From contig CAIIXF020000001.1 of the NCBI GenBank assembly GCA_903813345.2, positions 20,956,001-21,020,000 on the forward strand: a DNA stretch of 64,000 bases, written 5' to 3'. Source of the DNA: Owenia fusiformis (Eukaryota). Position 1 is the first letter of the stretch. Each line of letters opens with the position of its first letter. A model generated the notes under the pieces. It did not search any database, was not told the origin of the DNA, and saw nothing but the letters and a program-made list of their open reading frames with translations. The translations under genes were made by a program, and so were the position numbers. Shown here piece by piece: positions 15,994 to 64,000 of the stretch.

Positions 15994-16041
15994 GTAAGAC
16001 TTCATTCATTTTTACTTTTAATTCTTATGATAATAAAATAT

Positions 16042-18008: not shown

Positions 18009-18192
18009 AAAAATGGTCCTGATCAACACAGGCTTCGCTATAAGTATTGCAGTAGCACATTGGTGGAGGAGGCCATGGTTCTTTACCATGCGTTTTTAGT
18101 GCGCTTTTGCTATTGAAAAGGTTGCCGCATTCATCGCACATGTGGCGTGTTGGGGCAGTTTCCTCCACTGGCTGTACGACAACCAGATCCAT
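18009..18192 (-). pseudogene. Truncated second gene of the CACTGTG element (zinc-finger-like CDECGNLFNSKSALKTH)
   Basis: ttttgtag|ATG acceptor directly before the start codon; C2H2-like motif; cut at the HINE boundary. Confidence 0.45.
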
Positions 18193-21100: not shown

Positions 21101-21559
21101 CGATAACTGAAGCAACAAGATAGATTGTACTATAACTTGATAAGTATTGATATGTAAGGACTGTGGACTGATACCCTGAGTGTCAGCGTCTATAGTACAG
21201 AAGGGAGATGAAGCTCTCCTTTAAGAGGCAAATTCAAACTATTGGAAAGGGTATTGAACTAAACGATAACGTTGCGGTCATGATGCGACCTCCCAGGGTT
21301 GATTTCAGCACGAATCTCCCTTATCATACTGACTTTATTACACAAGAAGATAAACGAGCCGCACATCACTAGATATATTCAAGATAACTTTACGATAATT
21401 CGCCCTCGCGAAACATGCAATCATTTTAAAAATCGTTTCAGAGAACGTATCAGGAAAACACAAAAAAAATAACAACTGAAATAAGAGGAGAAAACGATTC
21501 CAAACCAGTGCTGACACTGACCGAACTTCACTACAGCTCTAGGAAACCCAGGTTCCAAA

Positions 21560-22355
21560 ATGTAAGTATCGCATAATCGCAATATTATGATTTTGTATTG
21601 TATAAAACCTGTTAGAAATTGAAGTCAAATTAATGTGACAACCGAACTATGTAAATAGTAAAATAAACTATGTATACAAACAATGCACTCGGCGTAAAGA
21701 AGAATTATGACACATTGGGAAACTGAAGAAAAATACTTTATTCAAAATGTTTTTTTGTTCCAGGATTTCAGACGCGATTATCAAGCTAAGTGTTTTGACA
21801 CTACTGTCAGTCCTCGCAAGGCCAACATCTTGTCTTCCAGTCCAAGAACTTGACACCACGTTTTCCCTTTTAAAAGCACCTATAAACATAAATAACCCAT
21901 TCGCACCTTTATCAGATTTGGATGAATTCTGTAAGCGATTTCTCGAATGTTGGAAACATCCAAGTGTGGTTAAAGTGATGGAGAAAGTTCATAAGCTGAG
22001 AAAGGACGTCGAGGATAGCACACAACGTATACTGGAGGGAAATGCAGGGAAAAATACATTGAAAAAACTTGTGCGAAATGAGCTGTTGTTGGACCACTTT
22101 AAATACGGATTGTGTGTCAGCAAGGCATGTAAAGAAGCGATGGCAAAATTTGACGCTTGGAAATTATCAATGGGCAGTGGGAAAGTCCATAATAGATGGG
22201 GCCGTAAGAGGAGAGATACGGGTAAAATCACGGCACCCAAAAGCGTCGTTCCGGAAAACTCGATGTTCAATACCCAAAAACGTGGACTAAGTTTGGTGGA
22301 CCAGTTTGTTTTGCTGAGAAAATGGGCAAGACACATTATTGGTGATAAGCGATAA
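21560..22355 (+). CDS. Secreted prepropeptide / neuropeptide-like precursor; start codon split by an intron, join(21560..21561,21764..22355)
   Basis: ccaaaAT|gtaagt ... ttttgttccag|G gives MISDAIIKLSVLTLLSVLARPTSC (signal-peptide-like); 4 Cys in the mature region; RW-G-RKRR amidation/furin site; KR-flanked C-terminal peptide; AATAAA near 22525-22536. Confidence 0.75.
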
Positions 22356-25300: not shown

Positions 25301-25884
25301 TGTTCTCTTTTGAATATTCAAAGTTTAATTTGGGTAATATTTCTATATTTTTCATGAAAAAAATTATTACCCAGGAGATTGTTCTCCAAACCGAGAATCG
25401 TCCTTTCTATTACTAAAAATGCTCATCATAAATCATTGATTTGGAACATTTGCAATTCAACACATTTTAGCCTTGCAATTGTTAAGTTTGATACAGTGGA
25501 ACTATTATGTAAGTTGAAAACATTTCCTTCCTCAAAAATGTTCTCCACTCAGTTGGGGTTCCACTTTCAGAATTTAGAGATTCATTTAACATAAATTCTA
25601 TGGTCATGGGACTCGGGAGTGTTCCACTTAAGGAGGAGTTCCACTGTTTTTACTGTTGTGATATGACGTTAGTTCATATATCATGTTAACAGCTCTATCT
25701 TAGAAACTTCTCAAACCACCACTTGTTCTATCCTTGGCTGTATACTCTCTAGTATCTGAGGCAATAGCTCTATATTCTCCCTTATGTTATGGTTTTCAAT
25801 CCAATCAAGAGAAAATTTCAGCAGATCTAGAGGTGTTATTACATTCATATTGTCTGTTCCTCCTAGACATCTTTGACTGATCCT

Positions 25885-28800
25885 TTAGGTTCCAGGCTCA
25901 AACTTCATGAGAACTTTCAACAATGAGTCAATATCAATAGTATCACCCTTCCTCAGATAGTCCAGTGTGTCGTTGATGGTTCCCTCTGGCAGTTCTAGCT
26001 TGTTTACCATGTTGAACTGTTTCACTATGAATGACACTTGATCATATGGCAGAAGCCCTGAAACATATGTACATACGAGATATACTAGTATATATAATGG
26101 ATATAATACTTCATAAAATTGTGATACACATAAAAGGTAATTAGAAGGGATGGTGTCCAAAGATTTCCTTGTTTTTTGGACATCATCCCTACATAGAAAA
26201 ACGAACTAGTATATCGTGTTTCATATGAACCAAAGAATTGATATCAATAATTTGCTAATGATTACAAAAGGGTAACAATTTGTTACAGACACTATCAACC
26301 AACTGACAAATGTAATCCATTGAATGCAAAATGCTGGTCACAAAAAGAAAATAGCTAAAACACAGAAATGAAGAAAATTGATAAGTTTTTGTTCAAGTTT
26401 CTGTCATTAAAATCTTCATTTGAAGAAAAGGGAATGGAAAAAAGAAAATAAGTAGCCAGAATATTACAGCACCAGTCTTGTTCATTATACATCACGATGT
26501 ATCTGAAGCTAATGACCATTTGGGCCTGGGTGAATCAATACACTTTGGACAATGAAAGATAAAAGAAAAGGCAATAACTTACCATTTCTATCAGTGTCAT
26601 TTCTATAGAGAACATCTGCAAGGTTCTGGAACCTGTCAAACCAGCCCTCACCCTCTGTGGCAGGCTGTGACTGGTTGTGGTGTTCTGGGCCTTGTTGTTG
26701 AAGCTGGTTTGCCCTGGATTTCTACAACACAAAGTACATAAATATGTAAGTGCCAAAATGAGAACAAGGCATTAACATGACAAAATGTCACCACCTAAAA
26801 CAATTTGGTCAATTTAAAGCAAGTTGGAAAATACCTTTTGACCTTGAGAAGGTCATTGAAGGTCAAAGGTCAAATCTAAAGTCAGATTTGAACTTCTGAG
26901 AACTTGTAAAGTCAAATTTGAACTTCTGAAAAGATGTAGATGATTTTGAAAAAAAATTTAGTCAATTTGAAGCAAGTTGAAAACAGACCTTTTTGACCTT
27001 TTTTGACCTTGAGAAGGTCATTAAAGGTCAAATGTCAAATCTAAAGTCAGATTTGAATTTCTGAGAACATGTAGATGATTTTGAAAAAAAAATTAGTCAA
27101 TTTGAAGCAAGTTGAAAAATACATTTTCGACCTTTTTTGACCTTGAGAAGGTCATTGAAGGTCAAATGTCAAATCTAAAGTCATATTTGAATTTCTGAGA
27201 ACATGTAGATGATTTTGAAAAAAAAATTTAGTCAATTTGAAGCAAGATGAAAAAATACCTTTTTGACCTTTTTTGACATTGTGAAGGTCATTGAAGGTCA
27301 AATGTCAAATCTAAAGTCAGATTTGAATTTCTGAGAACATGTAGATGATTTTGAAAAAAAAATTTAGTCAATTTGAAGCAAGTTGAAAAAAAACCTTTTT
27401 GACCTTTTTTGACTTTGAGAAGGTCATTGAAGGTCAAATGTCAAATCTAAAGTCAGATTTGAATTTCTGAGAACATGTAGATGATTTTGAAAAAAAAAAT
27501 TAGTCAATTTGAAGCAAGTTGAAAAAAGACCTTTTTGACCTTTTTTGACTTTGAGAAGGTCATTGAAGGTCAAATGTCAAATCTTAAGTCAAATCTAAAG
27601 TCAGATTTGAATTTCTGAGAACACGTAGATGATTTTTAAAAAAATTTTTAGTCAATTTGAAGCAAGTTGAAAACATACCTTTTTGACCTTTTTTGACCTT
27701 GAGAAGGTCAAATGTCAAATCTTAAGTCAGATTTGAATTTCTGAGAACACGTAGATGATTTTGAAAAAAAAATTTAGTCAATTTGAAGCAAGTTGAAAAC
27801 ATACCTTTTTGACCTTTTTTGACCTTGAGAAGGTCATTGAAGGTCAAATGTCAAATCTAAAGTCAGATTTGAAGGTCAAATGTCAAATCTAAAGTCAGAT
27901 TTGAATTTCTGAGAACATGTAGATGATTTTGAAAAAAAATTTAGTCAATGTGAAGCAAGTTGAAAAAAGACCTTTTTGACCTTGAGAAGGTCATTGAAGG
28001 TCAAATGTCAAATCTAAAGTCAGATTTGAACTTCTGAGAACATGTAGATGATTTAGAAAAAAATTGAAGTCAGTCTAAACAGTATTTGTTAAGTTATAGG
28101 AAGTTGTAAGAAATTGTTACAGACGCCGGACGCCGGACGCCAACCTCCAACCACCAACCACCAACCGCCAACCACCAACCGCCGTCGCAAAAAAAACGGA
28201 GACCATAACAATATGTCACCACTTTTGGTGGTGACATAAAAACCCAAGAGCATTAAAAACACAGCAAGATGTAACTGAAAAGTCTAATGAAAGCAAACCC
28301 ACAATATACCAAAATATGATCTAAACGAAAAAGAAAGAATGTCCAACAAAAACAAACCCCTCTTTCTCGACGATACAATGGACATTTCTTCATTAATACA
28401 ATACTCCTTTTTCCAGATGCACACATCAGAAGCCAAGAATTTGAATGGATAACTTATTGTAGGTTAGTGTTATGTATATTAGGAATGGTAAGCTTTGTTT
28501 ACCTGACTTTCTTCTAACTCACGTATCTGTCTCTGTACTTCATCAATACGGTTCTGTTGCTGTAGTTTACTATCTATGTAGTCCAAGGCATCTGGCCTGG
28601 CAATACGGGGACTGAGGTATGCATTCGGGTCAATCTCTGCAGGAGGGGCGTATTCCATCTATATTGAAACCGTGAATAAAGAATATAAATAACATGAAGC
28701 TTCTTTTGCATTGGGAAGCACACATATACATGTAAGAACAGTTAAACCTCTCTTAGTGAAATGAAAGAGGTGTCTAGTGAACACAGTCTTCAGCACATAC

Positions 28801-31800
28801 TCCATTGATTTCTGTATAAACTGTATCAAATCTCTTCTCTGTCAATGTCTGTACTGAACATCTACCTACAGTGAACACATTTTTGTGGCTGGACAGGCGT
28901 TCACTGTACACAGGTTTTACTGTAAAATAATCCTATTTCATGATTATACTCATAAGTGGTATAAACATAATATGTCTTCTTATAACAGAGAATATCAAGA
29001 AAGAATATTGATTAATCTTTTTGTAATTTTGACATTCCAAGGAAGAAATAACCTCAAAGAATAATTTATAGAACAAAGTGCATGCACATTCTAATGCTAA
29101 TCACATCAATCTTTCTGTCTCGCAAGACAGAGATGACATTGCGTTCATTAAGATTTCAACATTCTCACCTGTTTTGTTGTAGTGTATTTATCTGGCTGTG
29201 TTTCCTGTGCTTTTGGCTGCCTGTCTCTAGGGGAGGAGTCACCCAGGGGCCAGTTTGCTGAGGGGGCAGGGTAATGCTTCACATACTCTGTGGGCCTCTT
29301 GCTAGGGGGAATCCTCAAACCAGTCTCTTGAGGTTGAACACGTTCTAAGAACTTCAAAAACTGCTCCCAGCTGCAAAAATCAAATAGTTCAGGTCATTAC
29401 GAAACAAATTTTCTTATTTTAAAGCTCACTGCTCTGGGCTGGCAATGCACAAATAAAATTTAAAGGAAGGACTTTTCAATAAACTACATAAAATTTCATC
29501 ACAGATTTATACAAAGTCTAACTGCAATGCTCTTGTGGTTTCATTTTACTGGTAGGCCTAATTCCATTCATTCCTTAATAATCTCTTTTACCAATATTAA
29601 CCCACAAACTCACAAACAAAATGTTTGATTGCTTTGATGCATTATAAAGCATGCAGAAAGAGACTGCAATTTTGCTTCTTGGTTCATACACCAGTGAATA
29701 CAAGTTTTGGTAAATCTGAAAACACTAGACTATTAAATCAGTGAACATGTGATCACTAATTTGTGAAACTGAGTTCTATGAAAATAATGTAAAACATATT
29801 GTGATTTTTAATTTTTAGTAAACATGCATGCGTACTAATTACTTCCTAAATACTTAGGTGATAATTCAATAAATGTTGCAATCTGGACAAAACAATAAGT
29901 AACTGAACACTATCAACTTATAAACACACAACTCTATAACTTTACTTATAAATGAACACTTACTCATACTGTTTCTGCTGTCTGTTGAACAATATATCAA
30001 TAGATCTGTATGATCGAAATAACTTCAACTAATTAAAGGTAGAATCAAGAGAAAGCAAGCAAACTTGAGGAAAACAGAGTCTTGTTTAGTTTATTTTTGT
30101 CTCATATCATTTCTTGTCATCCCTTGTAAAAAACAAACTTGGCTATTTACATCTATTATTTTGGCCTAAAAGCTTGTTCAGTTTCATACAGAGCATTATT
30201 AGATTTCCACATTTCAAATCAACTTCAATTACAATCTCTATTTGATAATATACATGCACCATGATATACCATGACATCTCATTTCTTCTCAGCCCTGAGA
30301 TGCCATGATATAATAAGCTTGATTTGGCGATCCAAGAGAGCCCAAAATTGAGGATTTTTGAGATCTCTCATCCCAGCTCATATTTCATTTAATTGGGGTC
30401 ATTAAACTTGTGTACGCGTACCTGTGCTAATATCTGCTGTTAAATACAATGCTTATTATGTAATGTATTGACATTAGGTAAATGATTACATGATAACTAT
30501 CACACTTATTGACAGTTATAACTCTTCCCATATGATGGGCTCAGATCACAGAATATGCCTCATAATATCAGAGCATGTTTCAGGTGAAACAGAAAGATGC
30601 TATGAGTATCAGAATGATATACATGCAGTTTATGATCTTTTTGAGATATTATATTGGGAAATTGTAGGGAATAGGTCGCATTTGTTGGGAAATCAAAAAT
30701 GCTGCTAGAAATATTGCCATCCAACATACTTGTACACTGTCAAATTAGCAAATAAAATAAGAAAAATTGAATAATAATATAATAAATAAACAATAAAAAA
30801 ATCCAAAAAATCTTGAGTGATTGATTGGAACCTTACATTATGTTTAACAGAGGTTCACATGCCTCCCTCCATTAGGAGTACAGTACATTGACAATGCTCA
30901 ATAAGACAATAAACTTACTCATATTGGCCTTGTCCTCTATCATCCACATGGTCCAGGATTTTATTGATGATTGACTCTTGAAGAGGAAGCCTATGGAAGC
31001 GACATATTTCCTTAATCTGGAATTAATTTTAATCAAAATAAACATTGTAACTCAACTTAGACGATTTGGTCTGATATTCTTGTGATTTAGCCTCTTACTC
31101 AGTTGAAATGGATTGGCACTTTCTGTATTTATCTAAATGACTAAACATTATAATATTCCACAGTACAGTCAAACCTGTAGAGTGGAATACCTACAGAAGT
31201 GGAACACCAGCTCTGTTAGAGGATCATTTTTCAGAGTCCCAAGACCTACTGACTTCATGTTAAATGGACCTCTATAAGTGGAACACCTCTCAAGTGGAAC
31301 ACTTTTTAGAGGTAACAAAGGTACAAGACAGGTTTAACTGTATATTTAAATGTCTGTATGGTGAAGCAGATAAATGATGATGCTTCAGAATAAAGTTTAC
31401 TGTTCAACTTACAGACTGGTGTTGCACTTTTACAAGTTTTACTTTACAGGGATAGGAAATTGCTTTACTTACCTGCATTTCTGAGAGAGTACCTCTGTGG
31501 TACTTATCTGTCAATTGGAACGTGAGTCTGACTCTGTCCAGCCTTATTTCATCATCACTGTTCATGAGACATTGTTCTATCATCTTCAGCAGCTTCACAT
31601 CCTCACGCTGTACCTTGAAGGCACCTAAATGAGGGGGGCTGCAACAGAAAATAACAGTAGAAACACTCTGAGTATTACATAGGAGTTTTAAGTTTTCATA
31701 CTGAAAAAAACTAGTCTTTAATGTACATTCTTTATAGCCCTTGTGAAATAAACGATGTGAAATGATTAATAACGATAAAATATTATCAACTGAACTTCAT

Positions 31801-34463
31801 AGACAAAGTTGAACTCTAGTAAAGTGTAGTGTATAACCAAGCTTAAATATACAATGTACATGTATTCAATTTTCAATGCATTCTCCAAAAGGAGACGCTG
31901 CACATAACTCACCTTGCACCATCCGCCTGTGTTATAGGGTTGCTGTAATAGTTGCCACTCTGTTGACTTGACCCTCTCCTGTAGTTGGGCTGTGCATTCT
32001 CTGTGATGTCACGCTCGACCTTTCGCTCTGGGTCAAACCCATAGGGTGGTAGCACAATCTTTGAATCACTTTAAAGGGAGACAATGTGTTAAGATTCAAT
32101 ATTTCATTATGAATATTTTTTCAAAATGTATAAACAAAGTAGGCTTATATTCCAGTTCAGAATACTTATAAATTAGGCTTTTTCAAAACTAATCTGCAAC
32201 TTAAAGGATTTTCAACCTCTATATTAACACTCAATGAATATTATATCATTGGGCAAAATGTAATTTTTTATACAATCAACAAATCATCACGTGAATGTCT
32301 AATAATACTGACAACATATTTTTCTTAATATTAGATTGATATTTACCCTCTCTTGGGGTCAACATGTGAAGTTTCCTCTGTGGATCTCTTCATTGCTGCA
32401 CTCATAAATGCCAAGATTTTCTCATAGTTGACCATATTTGGGTTCATATCAGAGATAAATTGTGCACACATCAATCTAAGGCTTTCTGGCTGCACATATG
32501 CCTGGAATGCATGGAAGAGTTAAATTTTTAGGATTTAAAAAATTCAAAATAAATATTTGCTTATAGTAGACTATGTTGTTATCTATTCCACCTTACTGCA
32601 TTCAAGGATCGTATTAATCTATTCCTTTTTATCCCACCTGTAGTATAATTCCCTCTTTGTTAAACTACAAACAAGTAAAGATCAACTCTTTGATACAAAG
32701 TGAAATGTAATAAAGTTACAACATTTTGCCATCTATGAAATGAGTTTATATTCATCTGATGCAACTTCTGAAAGGAGTGGAGATTATAACATAGCAGCCG
32801 GATTACATGCAGAGTCACTAATAATATCAAATCTTATATCTATCATAAAAATGTGCAATGCACATTAATATGACACAAAAGCAAATGAGGCATTGATATT
32901 ACAAAATTTTGATAAAACATACCTGACTTTTAATCAATGTGAAGCACAAATCCTTGTAAGTAATATATCCACTCAAATCTTTATCAAATCCTGAGAAGTC
33001 AATATACATGTCCTTTAACTTTCTTGGATCAAATGACTCTAAATCTTTTTTAATCCTTTGCAAGAGTTCCAATTCATCTTGTTTACTCAGAGCTATTGAC
33101 TTAGAAGGTAGTTGATCTGCGCCCAGTAGATTCCTATCATATAGTTCATCTTTGGTGTGATCATTTTCATTTATATTATTGCTGGTTTGCCTTGGCTGGG
33201 TGTTGTGTGTATCTGGGCTAGGGATGGGGGGCAAAGGGGAGTAGGGGTTTATATTTTTTGGCATGGGAGACTCCCCTCCTGCTTGGCTTTCCTGAAAGTA
33301 TAAAGGAATACATATGAGTAAGCCTAGAGACCTGAATGATATTTCAATGTTGTTCCAAAGTTATTACATGTACACTATACTTACATTTTAGATTGCCCCT
33401 CCCCCCTTCTTCCAAAGAATCAATTTAATATACAAATTTAAAGTCACTTCCTTTTTAAAATGGACTATGTCTTTGGATGAACATTGATATATTGATCTTG
33501 TACTGAATGATTTTTAATATAGGCCTACAGGAAAATGGCACCATTCGGAAACTGGAACAAATTGGATAAATTACAAACATGGAACCCTGTAACATAGATA
33601 TGACCACTCATACAAATTGTTTACATGACAGGACAAACTGACTGATTCTAAAAAACCATTTTACAAAATAATAAGAATTCAATGACTTTAAGATAAGGGG
33701 TAATCTCAAAACATACCTGTATGCTATATGACCTCTTCTGGGGATCATCAAAAGGATTAGGGTCATACCTTTTCTTTTGAGAGGTCCCCTGGGGAGACCC
33801 TGGGGACCCACTTAAGGGACTTAGTTCAGCAGCATCTTTTAATTGTTGTCTCCTGGAATAGAATGATTCCTTAATGTTGATGCTAAAATACCCAAAATTA
33901 AAAATTGATCGTCTATCAATCATGTAAGAACTGATTGCTACTTCAGGGTAATTATCTATTTTAATATTGAGTCTTATTGTATTTAACACTGAAAACACAC
34001 TGGTTACCTTTGCTTCTCTGGGAAAGTCTCTGGCACTAAGACCTTTTTACCACCAATAATTTTGACTCGAACATTGGTTGGGGTGTCTGTAGTTCCAAAA
34101 GGTGCATTCTTAGCTACAAAATGATCTTCTATTAGATGGTCATTGATGTCTCTAATCTCCTGAAAATTCAGATACACAATAAAAATGGTGATAATTTAGC
34201 AGTGGATGAGCATAATATATGAACTTGTAGCATAACATCTGTGAAATGATTAGAAATTGTTTCTCATTGAGGCTCTGGGTGGCAGCTGGACACAATCTGT
34301 AGATTCATAATTTAGTGGCAGGACACAAATTGTAGTTTCATATTTGATGTACAATATTAGATCAAAATGTAATAAAATAAGAACAATCCTTATAGACTAT
34401 TAGTATATAATGCTTGAAATCTTCATTGCAATATATACCCACCCTTGGTCCTGATTTTGGCAT
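25885..34463 (-). CDS. C1orf87: C1orf87-like EF-hand-containing protein, ~12 coding exons (34443-34463, 34008-34159, 33717-33852, 32923-33291, 32347-32501, 31913-32068, 31473-31638, 30919-31016, 29169-29370, 28503-28658, 26583-26721, 25885-26057)
   Basis: GT-AG junctions; motifs PFGTTDTPTNVRVKIIGGK, LRLMCAQFISDMNPNMVNYEKILAFM, WEQFLKFLER and EGWFDRFQNLADVLYRNDTD resemble remembered C1orf87 segments (VKIIGSK, MVNYEKLLWFL, WIDRFRKLENALY); probable non-coding first exon with donor near 35685. Confidence 0.8.
26763..28240 (-). mobile_element. Helentron-associated non-autonomous element (HINE) carrying a ~135-bp satellite array of about 9 copies
   Basis: Hairpin atgtcaccac-ttttg-gtggtgacat and (ACC/GCC)-rich microsatellite at 28120-28240; sub-TIR tgtcaccac near 26787; monomer marker gtagatgattttgaaaaa recurs at ~26936, 27071, 27205, 27341, 27477, 27626, 27751, 27919, 28044. 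Confidence 0.8.
28739..28922. mobile_element. pogo/Tigger-type MITE (degenerate)
   Basis: CAGTTAAACCT...AGGTTTTACTG termini followed by TA. Confidence 0.5.
31166..31340. mobile_element. pogo/Tigger-type MITE
   Basis: TA|CAGTCAAACCTGT ... ACAGGTTTAACTG|TA; internal repeated gtggaacacc. Confidence 0.7.
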
Positions 34464-36679
34464 AGTGTGTTAGTAGAAGTGATGTAAAATCATTGCAACC
34501 CCCAGTACATTCACCGTATTGTATTTTGCATTCAGTTGTTAATTAGGCCTGTCTGCTTTTCTCTCATCTTCTGTTTATGGTTGCTGAAATCCTTAAATTT
34601 AAAGCAATTTTTTCATTGATTCAGTTTAGAAAAACTTCCTGCTAAAGACAAAATTGTATGCACTGTCCAATTAGTAACTTGGCAAATAAGCAGAAATACT
34701 GTTATATGAAAGTCAAAACAATAGGCTACTGCAGATAGGGCTGAAACCAATTCTCATACCGAGTATTCGGCCAGCTAATACTGTTCTTCTTTGAATATTT
34801 GCTCTAAAACTGGATGTAAATAATTATGATTTATTAGCAATGCCAAGTTTAAACAGATTTGAACAATCAAAGATCAGCAGATCTTAGGCAATATATCGCA
34901 TATACTGTACTTATGGGCTCTAGTGGAATGGATACTGGAAGACTCTAGCAGTATGTGATTACATAATCTACAGTATATATGAGTTGGCTTATGAGTTTAA
35001 TGTTCTAAATACAACGGTTTTATAGAAGCGGGAAAGAGTGTGAATCAAAATAATTCTAGTTACATGCGCAATGGTCAATGTATTTTTGAATAACCCAAAC
35101 TGAACTGTCTATCACTGGAGAATTTCACACACCTGATACCAAAAATACTAATAGAGAATTTGGAAAGCATGCAAGGAATAATAACGGAAGACTGTATTAT
35201 TTGCCCCCCCCCCCCCCCTTATTTGACTGCTATAAAGTTGTTGTCGGTGTCATTGCACAGGCCCGTAACCTAAAGCGACTCCACCCCCCAGCCAAAAATT
35301 CTTTCAAAATTATGCGGTTTTTCAACATTTTGAGCACTTTTTGCATGATTTTTTGCCAAAACTTTCAAAAAGCTCTCCATCTCTCCCGGCCTTGGCAAAA
35401 GCTCCCCCTTGGTAAAACTGCCCCCTCCCAGGTCGATAAATCTAGTTGACGAGAAGTCAGTCTGAATATATTCAGCCTAAATAGGATATAGTCTAGGTAC
35501 ATTCTGGCTACGGGCCTGTTGAATCTGCATCAGTGCATGACCTTTTTCGAAAAAAAATAAAATTTGGAAATTCAAACGTAGGATTGGCGATTCAGCTTCT
35601 GTTTTGGGCTAAACAAGATTACTTTCATTGCAGCATATTAAAACACATCCCGAGGTCATATGCTAAAACGAAAATATACACTTACATACTTTGAATTATC
35701 TAATTACGAGAAAAAGCGAAATTCCCACTGTTTTTATGTTGCCTGACGATTCAATATCCGGGTAGTTCCTTTTCTGCCATCTATTGGGGAAAATACAAAT
35801 TTGTAGGGACCTGTCATTTTCTTCAAATTTTCTAAAAACTTATGTGACGGGTCTGAAAATTCAAAAAGGGTGAAAATATGTTTTATTCTCAATATATCAC
35901 GCCCGGTAATCGAAGAAAATGAACGGAGACAGCATAAGTTCCCACACGTTAAACCGAAGTTAATTAAAATAACGGAGGGGACACGAGGGGAGTGAACGGA
36001 GGGGGAGGTAGGTTAATATAAATATGTCTTAAAGGTGGAAAAAATTTACGCGAAATTCGTGTATTTGAAAAATGAACTCAGTAACAACTGGGTGTTACAA
36101 CTCTGAAAAGTGAACAACAGGGACCTTTGGAGTTGTTTGGATAAAGTCAACTTACATAGCTTATCCGCTGTGTGAAGGGAATGATTTTCAATGCCAGTAA
36201 ATTTTCAAGTACGAATCAAAATTTAATTAGAAAGACGACTATTTACAATAGAGCCCCGGCCCAATAAAAAAAATTCATGCTCGTGGGAACTTACGTTTTA
36301 AACAGTATACGTCGCGAGGGTGATACACCTGTGTGTAAAACCGGCGTGTGCTTTGGGAGCTTAATGAGAATGAGACTGTTAAACATTTTTTACTCACTAA
36401 TATCCAGCTTTTTCTGAAGTAAGGGTTCCGATTAACATTGTATTTGTAACAAGCATCTTTAATGTTCAAGATGACAATTTAATTCTCAAGTCAATACTAG
36501 GTATCGTGTGTTGTGATTATAAGAAGCTATTAGAAATATCACAGTGCGCTTATATAATGCACAAGCTGATCAAATCATTACTCTTAATAATTTTGTGATC
36601 CTTTCCACTCATTAATCATTTTATTTAAAATATGGATGTAACTCTCTTTACAGAGGCAAATAAAGTATACATACATAAT

Positions 36680-38319
36680 AGTAGTATACGGCGGGCCTTT
36701 CGACCTACAACCTGCACCTGCACCATACACCATGGTGCACCGGAAGTGCACCGGAAGTGACGTCATAGATCACATTGTAAGATGGTGCACCGGAAGTGAC
36801 TGCACCGGAAGTGGAAGTGACGACATAGGTCACATGGTTACTGATATAACTGGTCAAGGTTACTGATAAGAGAGAGATAATAAACTGATATCACACTGAA
36901 AAAGATGGTCAAAGGTTACTGATAATTGATAAGAGAGAGGTAATAAACTGATAAGACAGTGAAAAAGATGGCCAAAGGTTACTGATAATTGATAAGAGAG
37001 AGATAATAAACTGATAAGACAGTGAAAAGATAACTACCATGGTTTCTGATATAACTGGACAAAGGTTATATTGATAAAAGAACATAGGTTTGAGTTGAAT
37101 GCACAGAAATGATGTCATACGTCACATGGTTACTGATATAACTGGTCAAAGGTTACTGTTAACTGATAAGAGGGAGCTCAATTGATAAGATAATCAAACA
37201 AACACTGTTAAGGTAACCTGGTGACTATGTGATAAGCTATCTATCCACTTCATGGATGTTTCATGGTTATAGACCAAAGGTGGATAACAAACTGATTAAA
37301 CAGTAAAAAAGATAACTGCAGAACCATTTCAGCCAAACAGATTTTAACTTGCAGAATTATGTTAACCAATCAGAGTACAGTATATTTGAATCAATCAGGT
37401 TTCGAGATGCAGAATCATTTTAACCAATCAGGAAACAGTATGTATGGACTGTTTGAACCAATCGGGGGACAGTATATTTTCATCCAATCAGAAAACAGCA
37501 AAATCAACCAATGAGAGAAATGTTCCAACAATCAGATTATGACTTGCAGAATTATTTTAACCAAACATAGTACATTATGGTAGAAATTTGACAAATTAGA
37601 GATATGTTCCACCACTAAACCAGTTCAGACCCGTATCAAAGTATCAAAATTATAAATGCCAGTTCAGACCCGTATTGAAGTTTTATAACCAAAAAGTCTC
37701 CTGAGTTATTTAAGAATATTTTTTAAATTGTCATTGTTGATCAATTTCTGCTTATTTTTTCACCAAACAGTCACTTGTTTCTTATTTCCGAGTCATTTTA
37801 GAATATTTTTCCAATCTTCACGCTTGAGTAATTTTTGCTTATTTCTTGAGTTTGAGGTATTTAATCACCAAATGGACACTGTATTCTTACTCCCGATACA
37901 TTTAAGAGCATTTTTACAATTTTTACGCTTGAGTGATTTTTGGTGATTCCTGGAGTTTGAGGCATTCTTTTACCAAATGATCACTTGATTCTTACTCCTG
38001 GGTCATTTTAAAGTATTTTTTAAGTGTCACGTTTGGGCGATTTCAGTAACTGTTGATCGATTTCTGCTAATTTTTGGAGTTTAAGGCATTTTCACAAAAT
38101 AGACACCCACCCACTATACAAAATAACACCCTTTAATAGGCATCTGTTAATTTAACATGCCACTGATAAAAATATAAACCCCTACAAAATAAATAAAAAA
38201 TGCTAACGTTAACAGTTTTACAGCAGAACATTTTCGACCAATCAAAGTGTATATGCAAATGAGCTGCAGAAGCATTTCAATCAATCAGATCAGATTTTTG
38301 CACTCTTTGACCCCACCGC

Positions 38320-38370
<51 letters not shown>

Positions 38371-38379
38371 CGCCGCCAC
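36680..38379 (+). repeat. Left terminal inverted repeat (~1.7 kb), ending in a (CCG/CCA)n microsatellite at 38312-38379
   Basis: Reverse complement of 40523-42256 with only a few substitutions and a 3-bp indel seen outside the microsatellite; mirrored ORFs 36909/41815 and 37728/40987 are identical. Confidence 0.95.
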
Positions 38380-38489
38380 TATCAACAACAACCCAACAAT
38401 AACAGTAAAATGCATTTTAGTGCTTTAGTTGTTTATTTAATATACATATTGTCATTTATACAAATTATTTCATAGTCCATTGTTAATGA

Positions 38490-38885
38490 TCACTGTCTGC
38501 GTTGGCGTTTTCCAGGTGGGCCAGAATAAACCATAACATCCCTCTTTTTCTTAGGTTTCTTAAAAAGTCTATTCATCACATTTCCATTATAGGTGTGGTC
38601 AAAGGAATCATTGTCACTCATTTGTCTGTAAACTCTCTTTGATGGCCGATCCCGTTCAGCCATTTCTTTCTGCTGCTTGTCAATTTCTGCCTTTGCTCTC
38701 TGATAAACAGCTTCAGTGGGACTGACGTGTTGAACAATTGGTTCGCGGACTGATGACACTGGTATCCCCTTGAGTTTTCCTCGCTTACCATAACCAGCAT
38801 GTTCGATGACTCTGCTTTCTACCTGGGCTCGTATAAACTTCTTCCACACTTCTGGGTCATCCACATAAGGCACTATCTTAGGCAT
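38490..38885 (-). CDS. Small basic Maverick protein (131 aa from MPKIVPY), possible core/DNA-binding protein
   Basis: Intact ORF; TATAAA at 38939-38944 and gcaacaATG context favour the ATG at 38885; KKPKKKR and KRQRR NLS-like tail; AATAAA at 38432-38437. Confidence 0.75.
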   Translation of the reverse strand: MPKIVPYVDDPEVWKKFIRAQVESRVIEHAGYGKRGKLKGIPVSSVREPIVQHVSPTEAVYQRAKAEIDKQQKEMAERDRPSKRVYRQMSDNDSFDHTYNGNVMNRLFKKPKKKRDVMVYSGPPGKRQRRQ

Positions 38886-38984
38886 TGTTGCTTCCTCCGT
38901 TTCTCTCAAACTTCTGATGCCCATGACTAAGGTTTCTCTTTATATTCTCATCGTAGTGACGAAAAGGGTCTACCAAACGTTCAT

Positions 38985-40415
38985 TCACAAAATCTCACTA
39001 CGTTCTTCTTCCATCTCACCAGATGTATCTTCTGAATCATATCCGTCAATAGACTCCTCATCGTTAAACATTTCATCAGCTATATAAGAATATTTGGCCA
39101 AAGTTTTTCTGATAGCTCTCGACAGAGACATGTCTTGATCAACTAAGAATTCAATTTCTTCTACTATTTCTCGATGTACATCGGCATCTTTGACTTCAAT
39201 AAATAACCTCAGAATTTCACCATAGTCATTTAAAAACTCAGATTTTGCTTTGGGATAAAGTTTTGCTTTGAGCTTTTGAGTAATTTCCTTCTCTGGTAAT
39301 TCCCTGGTAGTGTATTTTTCATACAAAGTGTCAGCTTCTTTTTTCAATACATCCAACACGTTCTGCTTCAGAGTAGAAAATGTATAATTTTCCTTCAAAT
39401 TTTCAGCATGGGGTTCATTTTTACCAGAGTCTTCATATTGGCAATATTTTTGATGTATGTCTGCATGTTTTGTGGTAATCAACACTGTTCCACAGTCTTT
39501 ACAATGGGGGAGATGTAAAACGGAGGGGTTTCTTAGAGTAACATCATCCATTGGACCTGGATACGTAGCATCCATCTGAGTTGGTTGAACAATGGTATTT
39601 GGTCGGAATTCCGACATATCTTGCCTCTGTTGAGCAGGGGAGCTCCCTGCCGTGTTATAAAAATGTTGAAATGATGTATATGGAACACTTTCTGCAACTT
39701 GCTGCAATGCATTAGGCTTAAGCCTCGAACCATCTTCAGTTTCTTGCTTCAGATCCACCACTAAGTAACCAAATGGATTTTCCGTAGCTTGTCTGTAAAT
39801 GTCAAGTAAAGTATGTGTCTTTCGAGGATACATTTGAGATGCCAAAACACTTATCTGTCTTTGATCCCTCGGGTTCTTGAATAGAACCAAGTAATGGCTG
39901 TTTAAGCTCATTGTTCTGCTTTCTCCATTGGGTGGGAAAATATTTTGTTGTAACGTGATAATGGATATATTTTTGTGATGAGAACCCGCTGTGTATAGCA
40001 ATGTAACTGCCTTGTTAAGGTCCGCCATGAGATCATCTATCACAACCAAATTGGTCACATTTCCATCGAAGTAATCGGGCTTCATCAAGTCATCGCAAAG
40101 TCCCATAACAAACTCGATATGAGGCTGTTTTCTCTTTATTTCTGCATACAAAGGCTGCCATTGTTTGAAGAACCATACTATTCTTTGTGGTGGTGGATTG
40201 ATTAATTGTTCGGCTCTATCAATAAGGTCGACAACATAGGTTGTCTTTCCACATCCAGTAGGACCTGCAACAATTTTAGTAAATGGATGCCTGAACTGTA
40301 TAGGTGAGTCGAGATCGAAGTTAGTCTCATCTTTTTTGTGAATGTTTCTCATATGTCTCAGAAGAATATCCTTCCTGGCAAATGTGCCAGAACACACAGA
40401 GCAAATATAATCCAT
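38985..40415 (-). CDS. Maverick/Polinton A32-like (FtsK/HerA) genome-packaging ATPase with N-terminal C2H2 zinc finger and C-terminal extension
   Basis: HPF..IVAGPTGCGKT (Walker A), LVVIDDLM (Walker B), GSHHKNISII.LQQN, YLVLFKNPRD, PFGYLVVDL; CSVC...HMRNIH finger; second CKDC...H...C motif; acidic tail. Confidence 0.92.
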   Translation of the reverse strand: MDYICSVCSGTFARKDILLRHMRNIHKKDETNFDLDSPIQFRHPFTKIVAGPTGCGKTTYVVDLIDRAEQLINPPPQRIVWFFKQWQPLYAEIKRKQPHIEFVMGLCDDLMKPDYFDGNVTNLVVIDDLMADLNKAVTLLYTAGSHHKNISIITLQQNIFPPNGESRTMSLNSHYLVLFKNPRDQRQISVLASQMYPRKTHTLLDIYRQATENPFGYLVVDLKQETEDGSRLKPNALQQVAESVPYTSFQHFYNTAGSSPAQQRQDMSEFRPNTIVQPTQMDATYPGPMDDVTLRNPSVLHLPHCKDCGTVLITTKHADIHQKYCQYEDSGKNEPHAENLKENYTFSTLKQNVLDVLKKEADTLYEKYTTRELPEKEITQKLKAKLYPKAKSEFLNDYGEILRLFIEVKDADVHREIVEEIEFLVDQDMSLSRAIRKTLAKYSYIADEMFNDEESIDGYDSEDTSGEMEEERSEIL

Positions 40416-40440
40416 GTTGCCACGTAGATGAGGTTGCGCT

Positions 40441-40475
40441 GAATGAATGAATCAAGCCTGCTTTTCACTTATATA
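40441..40475 (-). promoter_or_regulatory. Putative Pol II core promoter of the ATPase (TATA plus Inr)
   Basis: Minus strand TATATAAG followed ~25 nt later by TCATTCATTC, then GCAACATGG start context. Confidence 0.6.
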
Positions 40476-40522
40476 GTTTTAATACATCCCTCTGTTGAAT
40501 AAAATATGATAAAGGCACAAAA

Positions 40523-40534
40523 GGTGGCGGCGGG

Positions 40535-40589
<55 letters not shown>

Positions 40590-42256
40590 GCGGCGGTGGT
40601 GGCGGTGGCGGCGGCGGCGGGGTCAAAGAGTGCAAAAATCTGATCTGATTGATTGAAATGCTTCTGCAGCTCATTTGCATATACACTTTGATTGGTCGAA
40701 AATGTTCTGCTGTAAAACTGTTAACGTTAGCATTTTTTATTTATTTTGTAGGGGTTTATATTTTTATCAGTGGCATGTTAAATTAACAGATGCCTATTAA
40801 AGGGTGTTATTTTGTATAGTGGGTGGGTGTCTATTTTGTGAAAATGCCTTAAACTCCAAAAATTAGCAGAAATCGATCAACAGTTACTGAAATCGCCCAA
40901 ACGTGACACTTAAAAAATACTTTAAAATGACCCAGGAGTAAGAATCAAGTGATCATTTGGTAAAAGAATGCCTCAAACTCCAGGAATCACCAAAAATCAC
41001 TCAAGCGTAAAAATTGTAAAAATGCTCTTAAATGTATCGGGAGTAAGAATACAGTGTCCATTTGGTGATTAAATACCTCAAACTCAAGAAATAAGCAAAA
41101 ATTACTCAAGCGTGAAGATTGGAAAAATATTCTAAAATGACTCGGAAATAAGAAACAAGTGACTGTTTGGTGAAAAAATAAGCAGAAATTGATCAACAAT
41201 GACAATTTAAAAAATATTCTTAAATAACTCAGGAGACTTTTTGGTTATAAAACTTCAATACGGGTCTGAACTGGCATTTATAATTTTGATACTTTGATAC
41301 GGGTCTGAACTGGTTTAGTGGTGGAACATATCTCTAATTTGTCAAATTTCTACCATAATGTACTATGTTTGGTTAAAATAATTCTGCAAGTCATAATCTG
41401 ATTGTTGGAACATTTCTCTCATTGGTTGATTTTGCTGTTTTCTGATTGGATGAAAATATACTGTCCCCCGATTGGTTCAAACAGTCCATACATACTGTTT
41501 CCTGATTGGTTAAAATGATTCTGCATCTCGAAACCTGATTGATTCAAATATACTGTACTCTGATTGGTTAACATAATTCTGCAAGTTAAAATCTGTTTGG
41601 CTGAAATGGTTCTGCAGTTATCTTTTTTACTGTTTAATCAGTTTGTTATCCACCTTTGGTCTATAACCATGAAACATCCATGAAGTGGATAGATAGCTTA
41701 TCACATAGTCACCAGGTTACCTTAACAGTGTTTGTTTGATTATCTTATCAATTGAGCTCTCTCTTATCAGTTAACAGTAACCTTTGACCAGTTATATCAG
41801 TAACCATGTGACGTATGACATCATTTCTGTGCATTCAACTCAAACCTATGTTCTTTTATCAATATAACCTTTGTCCAGTTATATCAGAAACCATGGTAGT
41901 TATCTTTTCACTGTCTTATCAGTTTATTATCTCTCTCTTATCAATTATCAGTAACCTTTGGCCATCTTTTTCACTGTCTTATCAGTTTATTACCTCTCTC
42001 TTATCAATTATCAGTAACCTTTGACCATCTTTTTCAGTGTGATATCAGTTTATTATCTCTCTCTTATCAGTAACCTTGACCAGTTATATCAGTAACCATG
42101 TGACCTATGTCGTCACTTCCACTTCCGGTGCAGTCACTTCCGGTGCACCATCTTACCATGTGATCTATGACGTCACTTCCGGTGCACCACTTCCGGTGCA
42201 CCATGGTGTATGGTGCAGGTGCAGGTTGTAGGTCGAAAGGCCCGCCGTATACTACT
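40523..42256 (-). repeat. Right terminal inverted repeat, beginning in a (GGC/GGT)n microsatellite at 40523-40622
   Basis: Mirror image of 36680-38379. Confidence 0.95.
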
Positions 42257-43639
42257 CATAATGTCTCATAGACACATTACTCCCCCTCTTCGTTCAATTT
42301 AATTGTTTTCGATTATTTTTTATATAACGTATGGTAACGTATTTTACAAAACCAACGATGACAATAGTTTTGTGATGATAACGTCTCTTGAAAAAAATTA
42401 ATCTTCCAGGTTTGTTGAATTTTCTAGCGAAAATACTATTTGTCTCAGGGTTTGAATGTACCAATAGAAATGGGAACGTGTTGTTAACAACATCAGAACG
42501 TAATTCTGTTGGATACAAAGTAGTGTTTTCATGAACAACATAAAAATTTGATTAGAAAATAAAAAACGATAAAAAAGTTAAATGAGTTATAATTGGTCCC
42601 TAGTACTGTATCTCTTTGACATTCATTTCATCTAAATAAAGCCCTTTTTGCTCTTGAATAAAAAATATAAAGCATATTAATCGAAAGACGCCAATCGACT
42701 CTCAACTCAAGCGAAATAAATTGGATGCACATGTGCATAACTAAAGCATCTGTCCCATTTCATAAAATTATTCAATATAACAATCAAAACCAAGCATCTC
42801 TTGAAAGGGAGAGATGGACGTTTATTTCATGGTAATTCTTCGATTTTTAATTTTAGTGTATCTGGCAAAGGGGAAGTCCGATCCTTTTTTTAATTCTAAT
42901 TAATCTGGACTTTTTGCATGTTAAATAACAGTTATATTAATCTCCGATCGGATATCTTATTTCTTTATTCACAAAATAAAATATACAATTATACATTGGC
43001 ATGCTAAAAATAGCTACCAAGGTATTTATATCAATTATGAATGAACTTTATCATACCACGTTAAACTTTACGTCTTAACTTTTTATGATGTTCTTTTTAT
43101 GATTTTAGGTTTTTAACTCCATCACTTCAAATCCAATATGTCAATATTTGCAGTTAGTGATAGTTATACAGGAAAGTTAAAACGTAAACTATCTTTAGAT
43201 TTGGAATATGTTGAAGAAAGCAAAAAACAATCAGAAATATTCAAAAAATTTATTTTATGTCCATGGCACAATGGGCACGATTTTGACGAGTGTTTATCGA
43301 ATACACAGAATGGTGGCATTGGATTTGAAGAGAACTGATTAAATAAGATGTCATTGTTATGCCGCCTTGTGATAAAAGGCTATTTATGATAAAGCTCAAG
43401 AATAAAGTCCACAGTAATGCTAAATAGGGATTAGTCTACAAAAGATTTTATGAGATTCTAGCGAACTTGTAAAAACACTAATCCACTGAATATGAGGTTA
43501 TCCGAGCAACCATTCTAAACAACAAGTAATAAGAGGCCAAAAGGAACATGGCGAATACTATCACAGGATGAATATACAACCCAAAAGATGAACATGTAAA
43601 CATACACCATCTTAAACAACAGCAATAAAAAATTGAAGT

Positions 43640-47606: not shown

Positions 47607-48870
47607 TCATGTTTTCTTTTCATCAGTGTCATCTGCAGCTTTGTCTTTATCTTTCATATCTTCAGTTTTATTAGTATCATTGGACTCAGAGACTTTATTT
47701 CCATTTGAATCTTTAGCATTTGGGCTTTTTGGTTCATCGTCATCTGTTACAGGAGTAGCATCTTTAGAGATATTGTTATGTATATTACTAATGTCAAGCA
47801 TTTCACGAAGTCCTTCATTTTCAATTTCAAGTTTTTGTATTTTTTCTAATTGAGATGCACCATGAGCATCATCGATAGCTACAGCCTTTTGCATAACTGC
47901 GGCCATTTCATAGATTTTGTCAATTTTTTCAAGCATTTGGTTGTTATCTTCAACACTTCCTGTTGGGCTTTTAGCTTGGTCCTGTTTGTTTGCCATGACT
48001 AGTTTAAGAATTTGTTCCCTGTATTTTGACATGACAAGTTCGAGTGCAGACTGGTGTTCCTCAAGGGAAAGACGGAGCTCCTTGTTCTCATGTTGGAGTT
48101 CACGGATTTGGCGATTTTCTTGTGCAATACCTGGAGAGTCAATGTTACAGTTTTAATTCAAATATAAAAAGTGCATGAAGTATTAAATCGTAACTGACTT
48201 TTAACAAATATAACCAGTCCATATTAATTTCAAACGTACTGTAAATAAATCGTATTAACTCTATTACTTAATTATTCCATAGTATGACATTTCACACTCT
48301 TTAATCAAGTAAGTCTTGTATGATATCTTGTAAGCTGCAGACACATGTCACACACTCTCACATTGAACAATTAATACAAGAATTTCAATTTATCTGTAAA
48401 TTGGACGTCATCTCAAACCCGAAGCAGTAGAAATTAGATTGAATTTTTAATTAGGCATTCAGACAATGATTTGTAGTTGCTTCAAAAATATTGTAGGAAG
48501 AATTCAAATTGCTGAGAGTGGATGTAACATGGGGCATAGACATATAAAATATAAAGGATATTGGGCCACTGTATTGGAGTCATTGCGCCTACGCTGACAT
48601 AAAAATGAGAGCCAATTGTCTAATATATAAATTATTAATAAAATCATAGATAAAAAAATGTGACAAACCTAACACAAGGGTGGATCGAGGTCTATGCCTA
48701 GCCACCTGATTCAATTGTTGAATCTCCTCTTCATAAGTTCTCATAGCATCTATCCGTTTATTCAATGTGTGGGCCTGAGAAATCAGTGTGTCAGCTGAGT
48801 TGTCGTGGTCCTTCAGCCTGTCCACCAACATCTTAGCATCACACAACACTTTCTGTATTGTTAGTGACAT
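47607..48870 (-). CDS. FGFR1OP2: FGFR1 oncogene partner 2 / SIKE family coiled-coil protein, join(48669..48870,47607..48130)
   Basis: MSLTIQKVLCDAKMLVDRLKDHDNSAD...ARHRPRSTLVLG|IAQENRQIRELQHENKELRLSLEEHQSALELVMSKYREQ...IYEMAAVMQKA...LEIENEGLREML; 5'UTR exon donor near 49598. Confidence 0.9.
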
Positions 48871-63742: not shown

Positions 63743-64000
63743 ATTGTCAGTTTGTATGTATTGTCATCCCTCATCAATTATGACATTTTAACACAAGTTT
63801 TTTAATCTCAGAATTCTTATTAAGTAAAGTATTGTAGAATTATAAAGAGAGACACGGAAGAGAACCTGTCTTTTCTAGTTATTTTTTGCCTTCCTAGTTC
63901 CTGATATGAATAACATGTTTGGCTATCACGACTTTGCCTCTGGCAATATATGATTAAAGAGGCGTATCATTAAGTATGAACATCAACATTCCACTCCAGT

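Follow-up and report, generated by a model that had tools for sequence, protein, structure and literature searches.

The stretch of Owenia fusiformis DNA analysed here, 64 kb in length and referred to as the window, contains at positions 36680–42256 a 5,577-bp element that is probably a young, structurally complete, non-autonomous derivative of a Maverick/Polinton (polintovirus-like) element, generated by a fold-back error during replication of its parent and propagated by a helper. Mavericks are thought to be both viruses and transposons, and to our knowledge neither particles nor helper–parasite relations have been observed for them in animals. As a young and intact derivative, present in many copies and retaining the packaging ATPase, the element is a concrete object with which to ask whether Maverick genomes are replicated, packaged, and integrated in trans. 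It also opens a second question, namely whether the zinc-finger ATPase recognises specific repeats in the terminal inverted repeats (TIRs). Should it be only an integrated fold-back defective genome, it would still preserve, as few fossils do, an error of protein-primed replication in the germline of an animal. The literature searched, taken without Repbase and supplementary tables, describes polymerase-lacking polintons and degraded copies, and yielded no ATPase-only element with intact ends.

Structure of the element

The element opens with AGTAGT (36680–36685) and closes with ACTACT (42251–42256), and is bordered on both sides by a perfect 6-bp target duplication (Table 1). In the available text of a study of vertebrate Mavericks (Barreat and Katzourakis 2021, PMC8097293), TIR end motifs are defined as (AGT)2//(ACT)2 or (AG)3//(CT)3, and most often it is the first of these that occurs there, together with a 6-bp duplication. 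The element therefore carries both the TIRs with a repeated end motif and the target duplication by which Maverick/Polinton termini and integration are recognised, and this combination indicates insertion by a retrovirus-like integrase. Together with an A32/IVa2-type ATPase, these features support its assignment to the Mavericks. The terminal 26-mer matches the window twice, at the two element ends, where 100 shuffles gave an expectation of 0, and no autonomous partner with matching termini lies within the 64 kb.

The two arms, of about 1.7 kb each, account for 60% of the element. Positions 36680–36748 are 100% complementary to 42188–42256, and positions 36746–38377 are 99% complementary to 40556–42187. 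In a gapped alignment, the arms differ over 36680–38312 by two substitutions and one 3-bp indel (GTG), and all remaining differences are confined to the (CCG)n tract. Because the arms are almost identical, a young age for the element is supported. Alignment of the arms, the end motifs, and the CATAAT on both sides thus confirm what a sequence-only reading of this DNA had described (AGTAGT/ACTACT ends, a 6-bp duplication, and near-identical TIRs of about 1.7 kb), and its view that the element is recent is borne out by the arms. Several repeats lie within the arms. Those of 11 bp near the terminus could be an origin or protein-binding repeats, while the section with the 63-bp array has a read abundance far above that of the remainder of the arm. 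An Rfam scan returned no matches.

Table 1. Features of the element and its borders (window positions).
Feature	Position	Strand	Remarks
Left target-site duplication	36674–36679		CATAAT
Left terminal inverted repeat arm	36680–38377	+	non-coding, 1,698 bp; opens with (AGT)2
11-bp unit near terminus	36735–36759		tandem repeat, GTGCACCGGAA x2.3
63-bp tandem array	36864–37028		2.6 copies, within left arm
105-bp tandem array	37760–38020		2.5 copies, within left arm
(CCG)n microsatellite	38316–38377		inner edge of left arm
AATAAA polyadenylation signal	38432–38437	-	53 nt past ORF2 stop; no other lies downstream of the two ORFs
ORF2, small basic protein	38490–38885	-	131 aa from likely start; full listed ORF to 38924, 144 aa
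TATAAA box of ORF2	38939–38944	-	
ORF1, packaging ATPase	38985–40415	-	476 aa, intact
TATATAA box of ORF1	40469–40475	-	54 nt upstream of ATPase ATG
(CGG)n microsatellite	40523–40620		inner edge of right arm; inverted partner of 38316–38377
Right terminal inverted repeat arm	40556–42256	-	non-coding, 1,701 bp; closes with (ACT)2
Right target-site duplication	42257–42262		CATAAT

Long, near-identical inverted repeats are difficult to assemble, and none of the contigs listed spans the whole stretch, both of which would fit a larger element collapsed during assembly or a palindromic read chimera. Such an artefact is nevertheless extremely unlikely. The two flanks are distinct, unique sequences that share a perfect 6-bp duplication, the arms are not identical (they differ by the indel and the two substitutions), and read depth is even over the core. 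In addition, an X1 contig of single-copy depth (36491–36707) enters the terminus from the flank with no differences, reaching 28 nt into the element against a bridging threshold of 31 nt.

Gene content

Between the arms lies a core of 2,178 bp (38378–40555). The two intact, co-oriented ORFs, their individual TATA boxes, and the single AATAAA noted in the sequence-only reading were all recovered, every one on the minus strand. That reading had also held that the element encodes only a packaging motor. The ATPase is real and the other Maverick genes are absent, but ORF2 was overlooked, and the element encodes two proteins.

ORF1 starts with a C2H2 zinc finger (residues 3–26), which is followed by a Walker A motif (GPTGCGKT, residues 51–58) and a Walker B motif (VVIDD, residues 124–128), and then by a disordered linker, a second finger of the form CxxC...H...C (305–325), a helical domain, and an acidic tail. 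The protein itself stays under the Pfam gathering thresholds (19.8 vs 21 and 16.5 vs 22.8), while among its aligned relatives Pox_A32 is matched by all eight and Adeno_IVa2 by five of the eight. Its structure model has a mean pLDDT of 80, and the best viral matches of this model in Foldseek are adenovirus IVa2, giant-virus A32-like ATPases, an adintovirus FtsK-like protein, and the ATPases of Sputnik V3 and mavirus (E 2e-9 to 1e-6). The best matches among solved structures include STIV2 B204 (TM 0.57–0.61 on target). By its motifs, the Pfam matches of its relatives, and its modelled fold, the predicted product of ORF1 is a zinc-finger A32/IVa2-type (FtsK–HerA) packaging ATPase.

The surroundings of related genes place the core within a known gene order. 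In metagenome Polintons, L034 and L032 among them, short relatives of the ATPase (about 41–46% identical) have a polymerase-sized gene on one side and an rve-chromodomain integrase on the other, and in L013 an integrase directly follows a long-form relative. Vertebrate Mavericks have the order ppolb–atp–pm–pz, with small ORFs of unknown function after atp, in the available text of PMC8097293. The core is a contiguous part of this replication/packaging module, consisting of the packaging ATPase and then a small ORF. A scan of viral contigs for further relatives of the ATPase gave 14 pattern matches, of which none was confirmed.

ORF2 likely starts at the second methionine, at 38885, because the TATA box is just 15 nt upstream of the first ATG, relatives begin at MPKIVPY, and two listed variants fall in the first 13 codons. 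Its N-terminal ~80 aa are conserved and its tail is basic (KKPKKKR-type), with no resemblance to a known family. The structure model is poor (pLDDT 58.6) and contains two helices. Elongin_A was considered as an identity on the basis of a sub-threshold Pfam match (E 0.02) and an ESM Atlas value of 0.85, and was rejected, as none of eight family members matches from the likely start. An ORF2 HMM found no similar gene in any of the 85 loci scanned. One ORF2 match, the 1,106-aa P0130, looks like a chimeric gene call.

These two are the only real ORFs of the element, and none encodes a polymerase, an rve integrase, a capsid protein, or an adenain-like protease. When proteins of the full Polinton L034 (polymerase, integrase, capsid-size, and protease) were used as tblastn queries, themselves distant from the element, the ATPase was the sole match in the window, and two Polinton polymerase-sized proteins had no match there. 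The ORF list and the L034 searches thus uphold the earlier claim that no Maverick gene other than the ATPase is present. Since the polymerase, integrase, capsid, and protease genes are missing, their functions had to come in trans.

The element shares with autonomous Mavericks/Polintons its end motif, 6-bp duplication, TIRs, intron-less genes, and the placement of a small ORF after an A32/IVa2-type ATPase. It differs in lacking pPolB, integrase, capsid proteins, and protease, in the zinc fingers and helical C-terminal domain of its ATPase, and in its dimensions. It is 5.6 kb long with arms of 1.7 kb, whereas vertebrate Mavericks measure 12.7–24.6 kb and the TIRs of intact ones 46–1,447 bp (available text of Barreat and Katzourakis 2021, PMC8097293). 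Loss of the polymerase has a precedent in Pieris mannii, whose PolB-lacking polintons have TIRs, occur as several similar insertions, and are apparently still mobile, as far as the accessible part of the Pannagram preprint describes them (10.1101/2025.02.07.637071). What is shared, on that description, is the lack of a polymerase despite several insertions, which implies mobilisation in trans. The Pieris elements, in the same partial account, are however at least 12 kb long, keep capsid, integrase, and packaging genes, and contain retrotransposon cargo, whereas here nearly everything except the ATPase is gone.

Copy number, variation, and transcription

In raw DNA reads (X24), the summed depth of the core is 25–47 throughout, compared with about 0.1–1.3 in flank bins that look single-copy. 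Among the X1 contigs, word depth is 54–79 in the flank and 643 in a 301-nt contig over 40230–40520 that has one difference. Depth is even across the core, both genes included, and the core is present in roughly 10 or more copies. The sequence-only reading had named a single copy as a finding that would speak against it, and the DNA reads instead reveal a multi-copy sequence family. Two arms per core would predict an arm-to-core depth of 2:1; measured against a single-arm reference, the ratio is ~1.6:1 in X1 and 0.35–0.9:1 in X24 (37410–38051).

Nine of the 14 variants listed within the ORFs are synonymous (expected fraction 0.21–0.27; binomial p about 0.002–0.008, from 40 of 417 variant rows). 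The ATPase appears to have evolved under purifying selection. Either full-length relatives or mini-elements may have been its target, and a synonymous excess would arise equally in full-length viruses.

Transcription, which the sequence-only reading had proposed to check by RNA-seq, was seen for one of the two genes. In two RNA runs, each sampled to about 6%, ORF2 RNA reached a depth of about 4 in X21, indicating low-level transcription, while ATPase RNA had a depth of 0 in X21 and of at most about 1 in X22. None of the indexed runs recorded as RNA contained the stretch.

Origin of the element

Judged by anatomy alone, the element may have arisen when protein-primed replication of its parent went wrong once, through fold-back or a strand switch. 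A prematurely terminated strand with (CGG)n at its end could have annealed to the (CCG)n tract close to the terminus, after which the 1.7-kb terminal region would have been copied as an inverted arm, and the two genes nearest that terminus would have been retained owing to their position. One such event would suffice, given that an inverted (CCG)n tract forms the inner edge of each arm and that the two genes are oriented towards the same arm. The junctions agree with a fold-back origin as well, the AATAAA adjoining the left arm and the promoter of the ATPase the right one. If the parent carried these genes beside its terminus, a single fold-back implies that retention of the ATPase may be positional rather than adaptive. 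Once formed, the element may have spread by means of a helper Maverick in the same genome, to which the terminal (AGT)2 repeat and the arms would offer an origin of replication and a substrate for the integrase. With its zinc fingers, the ATPase may recognise the arm repeat arrays as a packaging signal.

Adenoviruses offer a parallel for such an event. Daniell is reported to have described, in 1976, incomplete adenovirus particles whose defective genomes carry long inverted terminal repetitions. In outline, these genomes resemble the element. Both are linear replicons primed by a protein, with one end present twice, as long inverted copies on either side of a short unique core. What is kept is the end bearing the packaging domain, which in adenovirus adjoins the left ITR (PMC5033970). 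The difference is that the adenovirus genomes are extrachromosomal by-products of infection, whereas the element is integrated in the germline with a target duplication.

Reduction in place would be a different history, in which a full-length Maverick inserted here and later shrank by internal deletions, so that the 5.6-kb unit was never mobile as such. The target duplication is equally compatible with both histories, and a second 5.6-kb copy of identical structure with another target duplication is not seen among the read-junction rows listed. This history is still very unlikely. In known Mavericks and metagenome Polintons the ATPase sits between the polymerase and other genes, and therefore two separate deletions would be required, neither of which could have removed the poly(A) signal or a promoter. 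The arms moreover exceed the range of intact vertebrate Mavericks and have symmetric microsatellite ends, and two arm substitutions leave little time for decay.

Relationship to satellites and other small elements

The sequence-only reading suggested that the element may be a helper-dependent satellite. The part of this that stands is that the element has none of the genes with which to replicate, integrate, and form capsids on its own, while the retention of the ATPase is explicable by position. In its full form, the proposal would be that of an adapted satellite of a Maverick virus, whose own zinc-finger ATPase, possibly with ORF2 as a specificity partner, directs helper capsids to the TIR repeats, so that the 5.6-kb unit spreads at the expense of its helper as SaPI/PICI or virophages do. 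The likeness to those systems would be that of a small, helper-dependent element retaining packaging functions, known here from its sequence. Satellites usually encode their own integrase and replication initiator, neither of which the element carries.

An adapted satellite would accord with two intact ORFs that each have a promoter, with an even-depth, multi-copy core, with the synonymous excess, and with two ATPase zinc fingers alongside several arm repeat arrays as candidate recognition sites. An unrelated metagenome contig (L036) adds a second small ATPase-bearing element between inverted repeats, and there are five contigs of 5.7–12.7 kb with zinc-finger-type ATPases (L004, L024, L062, L070, and L082) that have no polymerase, integrase, capsid-size, or protease matches. 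However, those negative tblastn results came from distant queries, no inverted repeat flanks the zinc-finger ATPase in L004, L024, L062, or L070 (the last has none at all), and arms flank the ATPase in only one of the 85 loci scanned, namely L036. ATPase RNA was not found in the two RNA runs, and the window's ATPase family has no gene model among the 240 matches listed, compared with six Owenia fusiformis gene models for ORF2. One fold-back event would account for retention by position, and an adapted satellite is unlikely.

Slightly more doubtful is a broader proposal, in which the element and L036 would belong to a lophotrochozoan class of helper-dependent 'mini-Mavericks' that have shed their replication, integration, and capsid genes, kept a zinc-finger-guided packaging ATPase (here with a small basic partner), use the repeat arrays of their overlong TIRs as private packaging signals, and steal capsids from full-length polintoviruses. 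If true, animal Maverick viruses would have their first known satellite. L036 is a 4,242-bp contig with arms of at least 340 bp (94–97% identity) around a 3.5-kb core. This core encodes an A32-type ATPase with a zinc finger, has three small ORFs besides, and contains neither polymerase nor integrase. Inverted arms around a core of only a zinc-finger ATPase and small ORFs are common to both, the termini and target duplication of L036 not being captured in the contig. Its ATPase is interrupted and 31% identical to that of the window, its other small ORFs differ and include a CARD-RING protein, and the two ATPases fall in different well-supported clades.

Structure and classification of the element

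The element at 36680-42256 is a sharply delimited mini-Maverick of 5,577 bp that needs to be serviced in trans. Its termini are AGTAGT and ACTACT, the target duplication CATAAT lies on each flank, and its terminal 26-mer has no further occurrence within the 64-kb window. In a gapped alignment, the two inverted arms differ by a single GTG indel and by substitutions at 36776 and 37173 across 1,633 bp outside the (CCG)n tract that forms their inner edge. Neither arm holds a credible open reading frame. They are instead composed of arrays of 11-bp (2.3 copies), 63-bp (2.6 copies), and 105-bp (2.5 copies) units, together with dispersed 44- and 57-nt repeats. The sequence-only reading is thereby borne out in its account of these ends with a perfect 6-bp duplication, of near-identical terminal inverted repeats (TIRs) of ~1.7 kb, and of a ~2.1 kb core with two intact, co-oriented reading frames, each with a TATA box, and one AATAAA after the second.

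Features of the element and its surroundings (window positions)
Feature	Position	Strand or orientation	Size or identity	Remark
Arm pair, outer	36680-36748/42188-42256	inverted	100%	repeat search
Arm pair, inner	36746-38377/40556-42187	inverted	99%	repeat search
Core	38378-40555		2,178 bp	
ORF1, packaging ATPase	38985-40415	minus	476 aa	
TATATAA	54 nt upstream of ATPase ATG	minus		
ORF2	38490-38924, likely start 38885	minus	131 aa from likely start	
TATAAA	upstream of ORF2	minus		
AATAAA	downstream of ORF2	minus		single
Repeat segment	35204-35483			starts with poly-C run
Repeat segment	35912-36125			left of insertion
Retrotransposon frame	52859-56107	minus	1,082 aa	
Host-type genes	62321-63763 and 47607-48152	minus		long exons/ORFs

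According to Barreat and Katzourakis (PMC8097293), intact vertebrate Mavericks span 12.7-24.6 kb, with TIRs of 46-1,447 bp, 6-bp target duplications, and the gene order ppolb-atp-pm-pz. Their commonest end motif, (AGT)2//(ACT)2, has been proposed to assist jumping back during protein-primed replication. The element agrees with them in exactly this motif, in the duplication, and in having a small reading frame after an atp gene, but it is a third as large and its TIRs are longer. Neither the element nor the 64-kb window as a whole gave a match to a polymerase, an integrase, a capsid-size protein, or a protease, in agreement with the earlier claim that the ATPase is its sole Maverick gene. The element is therefore a non-autonomous Maverick derivative.

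Published accounts describe butterfly polintons that lack a polymerase yet are apparently mobile (preprint 10.1101/2025.02.07.637071), abundant degraded Mavericks (PMC8097293; PMC8504770), and very many polinton-like regions in bivalves (10.1101/2025.04.19.649669). Within the article texts covered by the search, no account was found of an ATPase-only element whose ends are intact. Repbase does contain entries for non-autonomous Polintons.

Encoded proteins

The ORF1 protein has a C2H2 finger at its N terminus and carries GPTGCGKT as its Walker A and VVIDD as its Walker B motif. After a disordered linker come another finger, of the form CxxC...H...C, then a helical domain and finally an acidic tail. 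Scored against Pfam, the protein itself falls slightly below the cut-offs for Adeno_IVa2 and Pox_A32; aligned relatives match Pox_A32 in 8/8 cases and Adeno_IVa2 in 5/8. The AlphaFold model (pLDDT 80) matches adenovirus IVa2, giant-virus A32-like ATPases, an adintovirus FtsK-like protein, and the ATPases of Sputnik V3 and mavirus, and, among solved structures, the STIV2 B204 packaging NTPase. This long architecture is common, with 145 relatives of like length among the matches listed, the named ones being from bivalves (Pinctada, Mytilus); the best relatives among those matches (P0001, P0126) are 64-70% identical.

In metagenome loci such as L034 and L032, short-form relatives (~41-46% identical) have a polymerase-sized gene on one side and an rve-chromodomain integrase on the other, and a capsid-size gene and a protease are found further downstream; in L013 an integrase directly follows a long-form relative. 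Judged by gene neighbourhood, such loci tie the ATPase to genuine Polintons.

Accessory genes accompany the core set in the full metagenome Polintons (L034:6306-6815, L034:11917-12566, L032:11407-11925). They encode a DUF5679 plus phospholipase A2-like protein immediately after the ATPase and, on the opposite strand, PC4-like and PP1c-binding-region proteins.

The ORF2 protein has ~80 conserved N-terminal residues and a basic tail, and searches with it gave no functional assignment. Its family is small, with seven matches among 1.84 billion representatives. Six gene models are spread over several Owenia fusiformis chromosomes: three are 92-95% identical to ORF2, one ~64%, and a cluster of two ~36%. 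An oweniid annelid is accordingly the most likely source of the window.

Copy number, selection, and expression

The element is part of a sequence family that is multi-copy and under selective constraint. Four runs were mapped to 34200-40600, from the left flank through the left arm and the core. Raw DNA reads of run X24, kept at a likeness of at least 90%, gave summed depths of ~0.1-1.3 in single-copy-looking flank bins versus 25-47 in every core bin, evenly over ORF2, spacer, and ATPase. These reads are mostly 90-95% alike, and at many core positions every one of them differs from the window; thus, the X24 individual carries related copies rather than the window's own. In the contigs of X1, which possibly derive from the source sample and are then not independent, the flank has a word depth of 54-79. 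For 40230-40520, a 301-nt contig with a single difference reaches 643; a pair of variant contigs (13-14 differences) reaches 471 and 425, and an arm contig (37498-37688, one difference) reaches 273. Together, core depth and variant contigs indicate roughly ten or more copies of the core, which fall into two sub-lineages or more. Arm depth relative to core depth is ~1.6 in X1 and below 1 in X24, where non-coding arms may have diverged past the 90% limit. The microsatellites stop 150-nt reads. At the left junction, an X1 contig reaches just 28 nt into the element.

Within the arm, 36768-37409, which includes the 63-bp array, has a depth far above the rest of the element (47-169 in X24; 15,000-34,000 in X1). 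Its repeat units thus have further copies elsewhere in the genome, perhaps in the form of a satellite or of MITE-like derivatives of Maverick ends.

Among 40 of 417 variant rows, 14 variants fell inside ORF1 or ORF2 (from its likely start), and nine were synonymous (ATPase 6/9, ORF2 3/5) against an expected fraction of 0.21-0.27 (binomial p ~0.002-0.008). In X21, stranded RNA reads are confined to 38480-38907, at a depth of ~4; their first mates lie on the plus strand, so the RNA comes from the minus strand, and their variants suit a sibling copy better than the window's. ATPase RNA depth is zero in X21 and at most ~1 in the second RNA run, X22. Consistent with this, no Owenia gene model of the ATPase lineage appears among the 240 matches listed, versus six for ORF2.

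Intact genes, a multi-copy core, and purifying selection would all suit an adapted satellite of a Maverick, but the selection could have operated in full-length relatives and the ATPase looks silent in both RNA runs.

Origin of the element

The arms are symmetrical in that each ends in a microsatellite, (CCG)n on one side and its inverted partner (CGG)n on the other. The two genes face the left arm, which adjoins the poly(A) signal, while the ATPase promoter adjoins the right arm. The arms are nearly identical to each other, while many core sites distinguish this copy from its relatives. Together, the symmetric microsatellite edges, gene orientation, and near-identical arms suggest a fold-back origin, and the element was probably born by such a replication error. 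A truncated displaced strand would have folded back once, primed at the microsatellite, turning 'terminus-arm-ORF2-ATPase...' into arm-core-arm in a single step. To reach this structure by deletion, an element with a central ATPase would need two independent events, which is less parsimonious.

Long inverted terminal repetitions of the fold-back type were reportedly observed by Daniell in 1976 in adenovirus incomplete particles. Published work places the adenovirus packaging domain beside one ITR (PMC5033970), and describes outward-pointing gene modules in some Mavericks (Rhinella marina), the orientation that fold-back requires (PMC8097293).

The (AGT)2 terminus, together with the duplication, implies that this 5.6-kb molecule was acted on by the polymerase, terminal protein, and integrase of a helper (a complete Maverick); that they acted on a longer element, reduced in place afterwards, has a low probability.

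If fold-back occurred, the ATPase would have been retained for its closeness to the terminus rather than its usefulness, and retention by position sufficiently explains what a satellite would explain by adaptation. The ATPase zinc fingers and arm repeat arrays could be a cognate recognition pair, and a second small TIR-bounded ATPase element, with an ATPase of a different clade, exists in metagenome locus L036, albeit as one of 85 loci scanned. Lone zinc-finger ATPases also occur in five contigs of 5.7-12.7 kb, but these lack flanking inverted repeats and may be decayed copies. Of the satellite-like mini-Maverick first proposed, the non-autonomous element served in trans thus stands, while its adaptation as a satellite is unlikely.

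The L036 element also encodes a CARD and RING-finger protein with an IAP-like tail (L036:3217-3738), which, though carried by a Maverick derivative, may modulate cell death or innate immunity.

Genomic surroundings

The element sits amid repeat-rich DNA. The segment at 35204-35483 has a summed DNA depth of ~390 versus ~1 in neighbouring bins, is also strong in both RNA runs, and has diverging reads at 35284-35341. It has no match in Rfam and is probably a very high-copy, SINE-like short repeat. The second segment has a DNA depth of ~43 and loose ends at 36054 and 36085. Further right, a frame with endonuclease/exonuclease/phosphatase and reverse-transcriptase domains is apparently an intact LINE-type retrotransposon. 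Of the two host-type genes, one encodes C-type lectin and F5/8 type C (discoidin) domains and the other belongs to the SIKE family.
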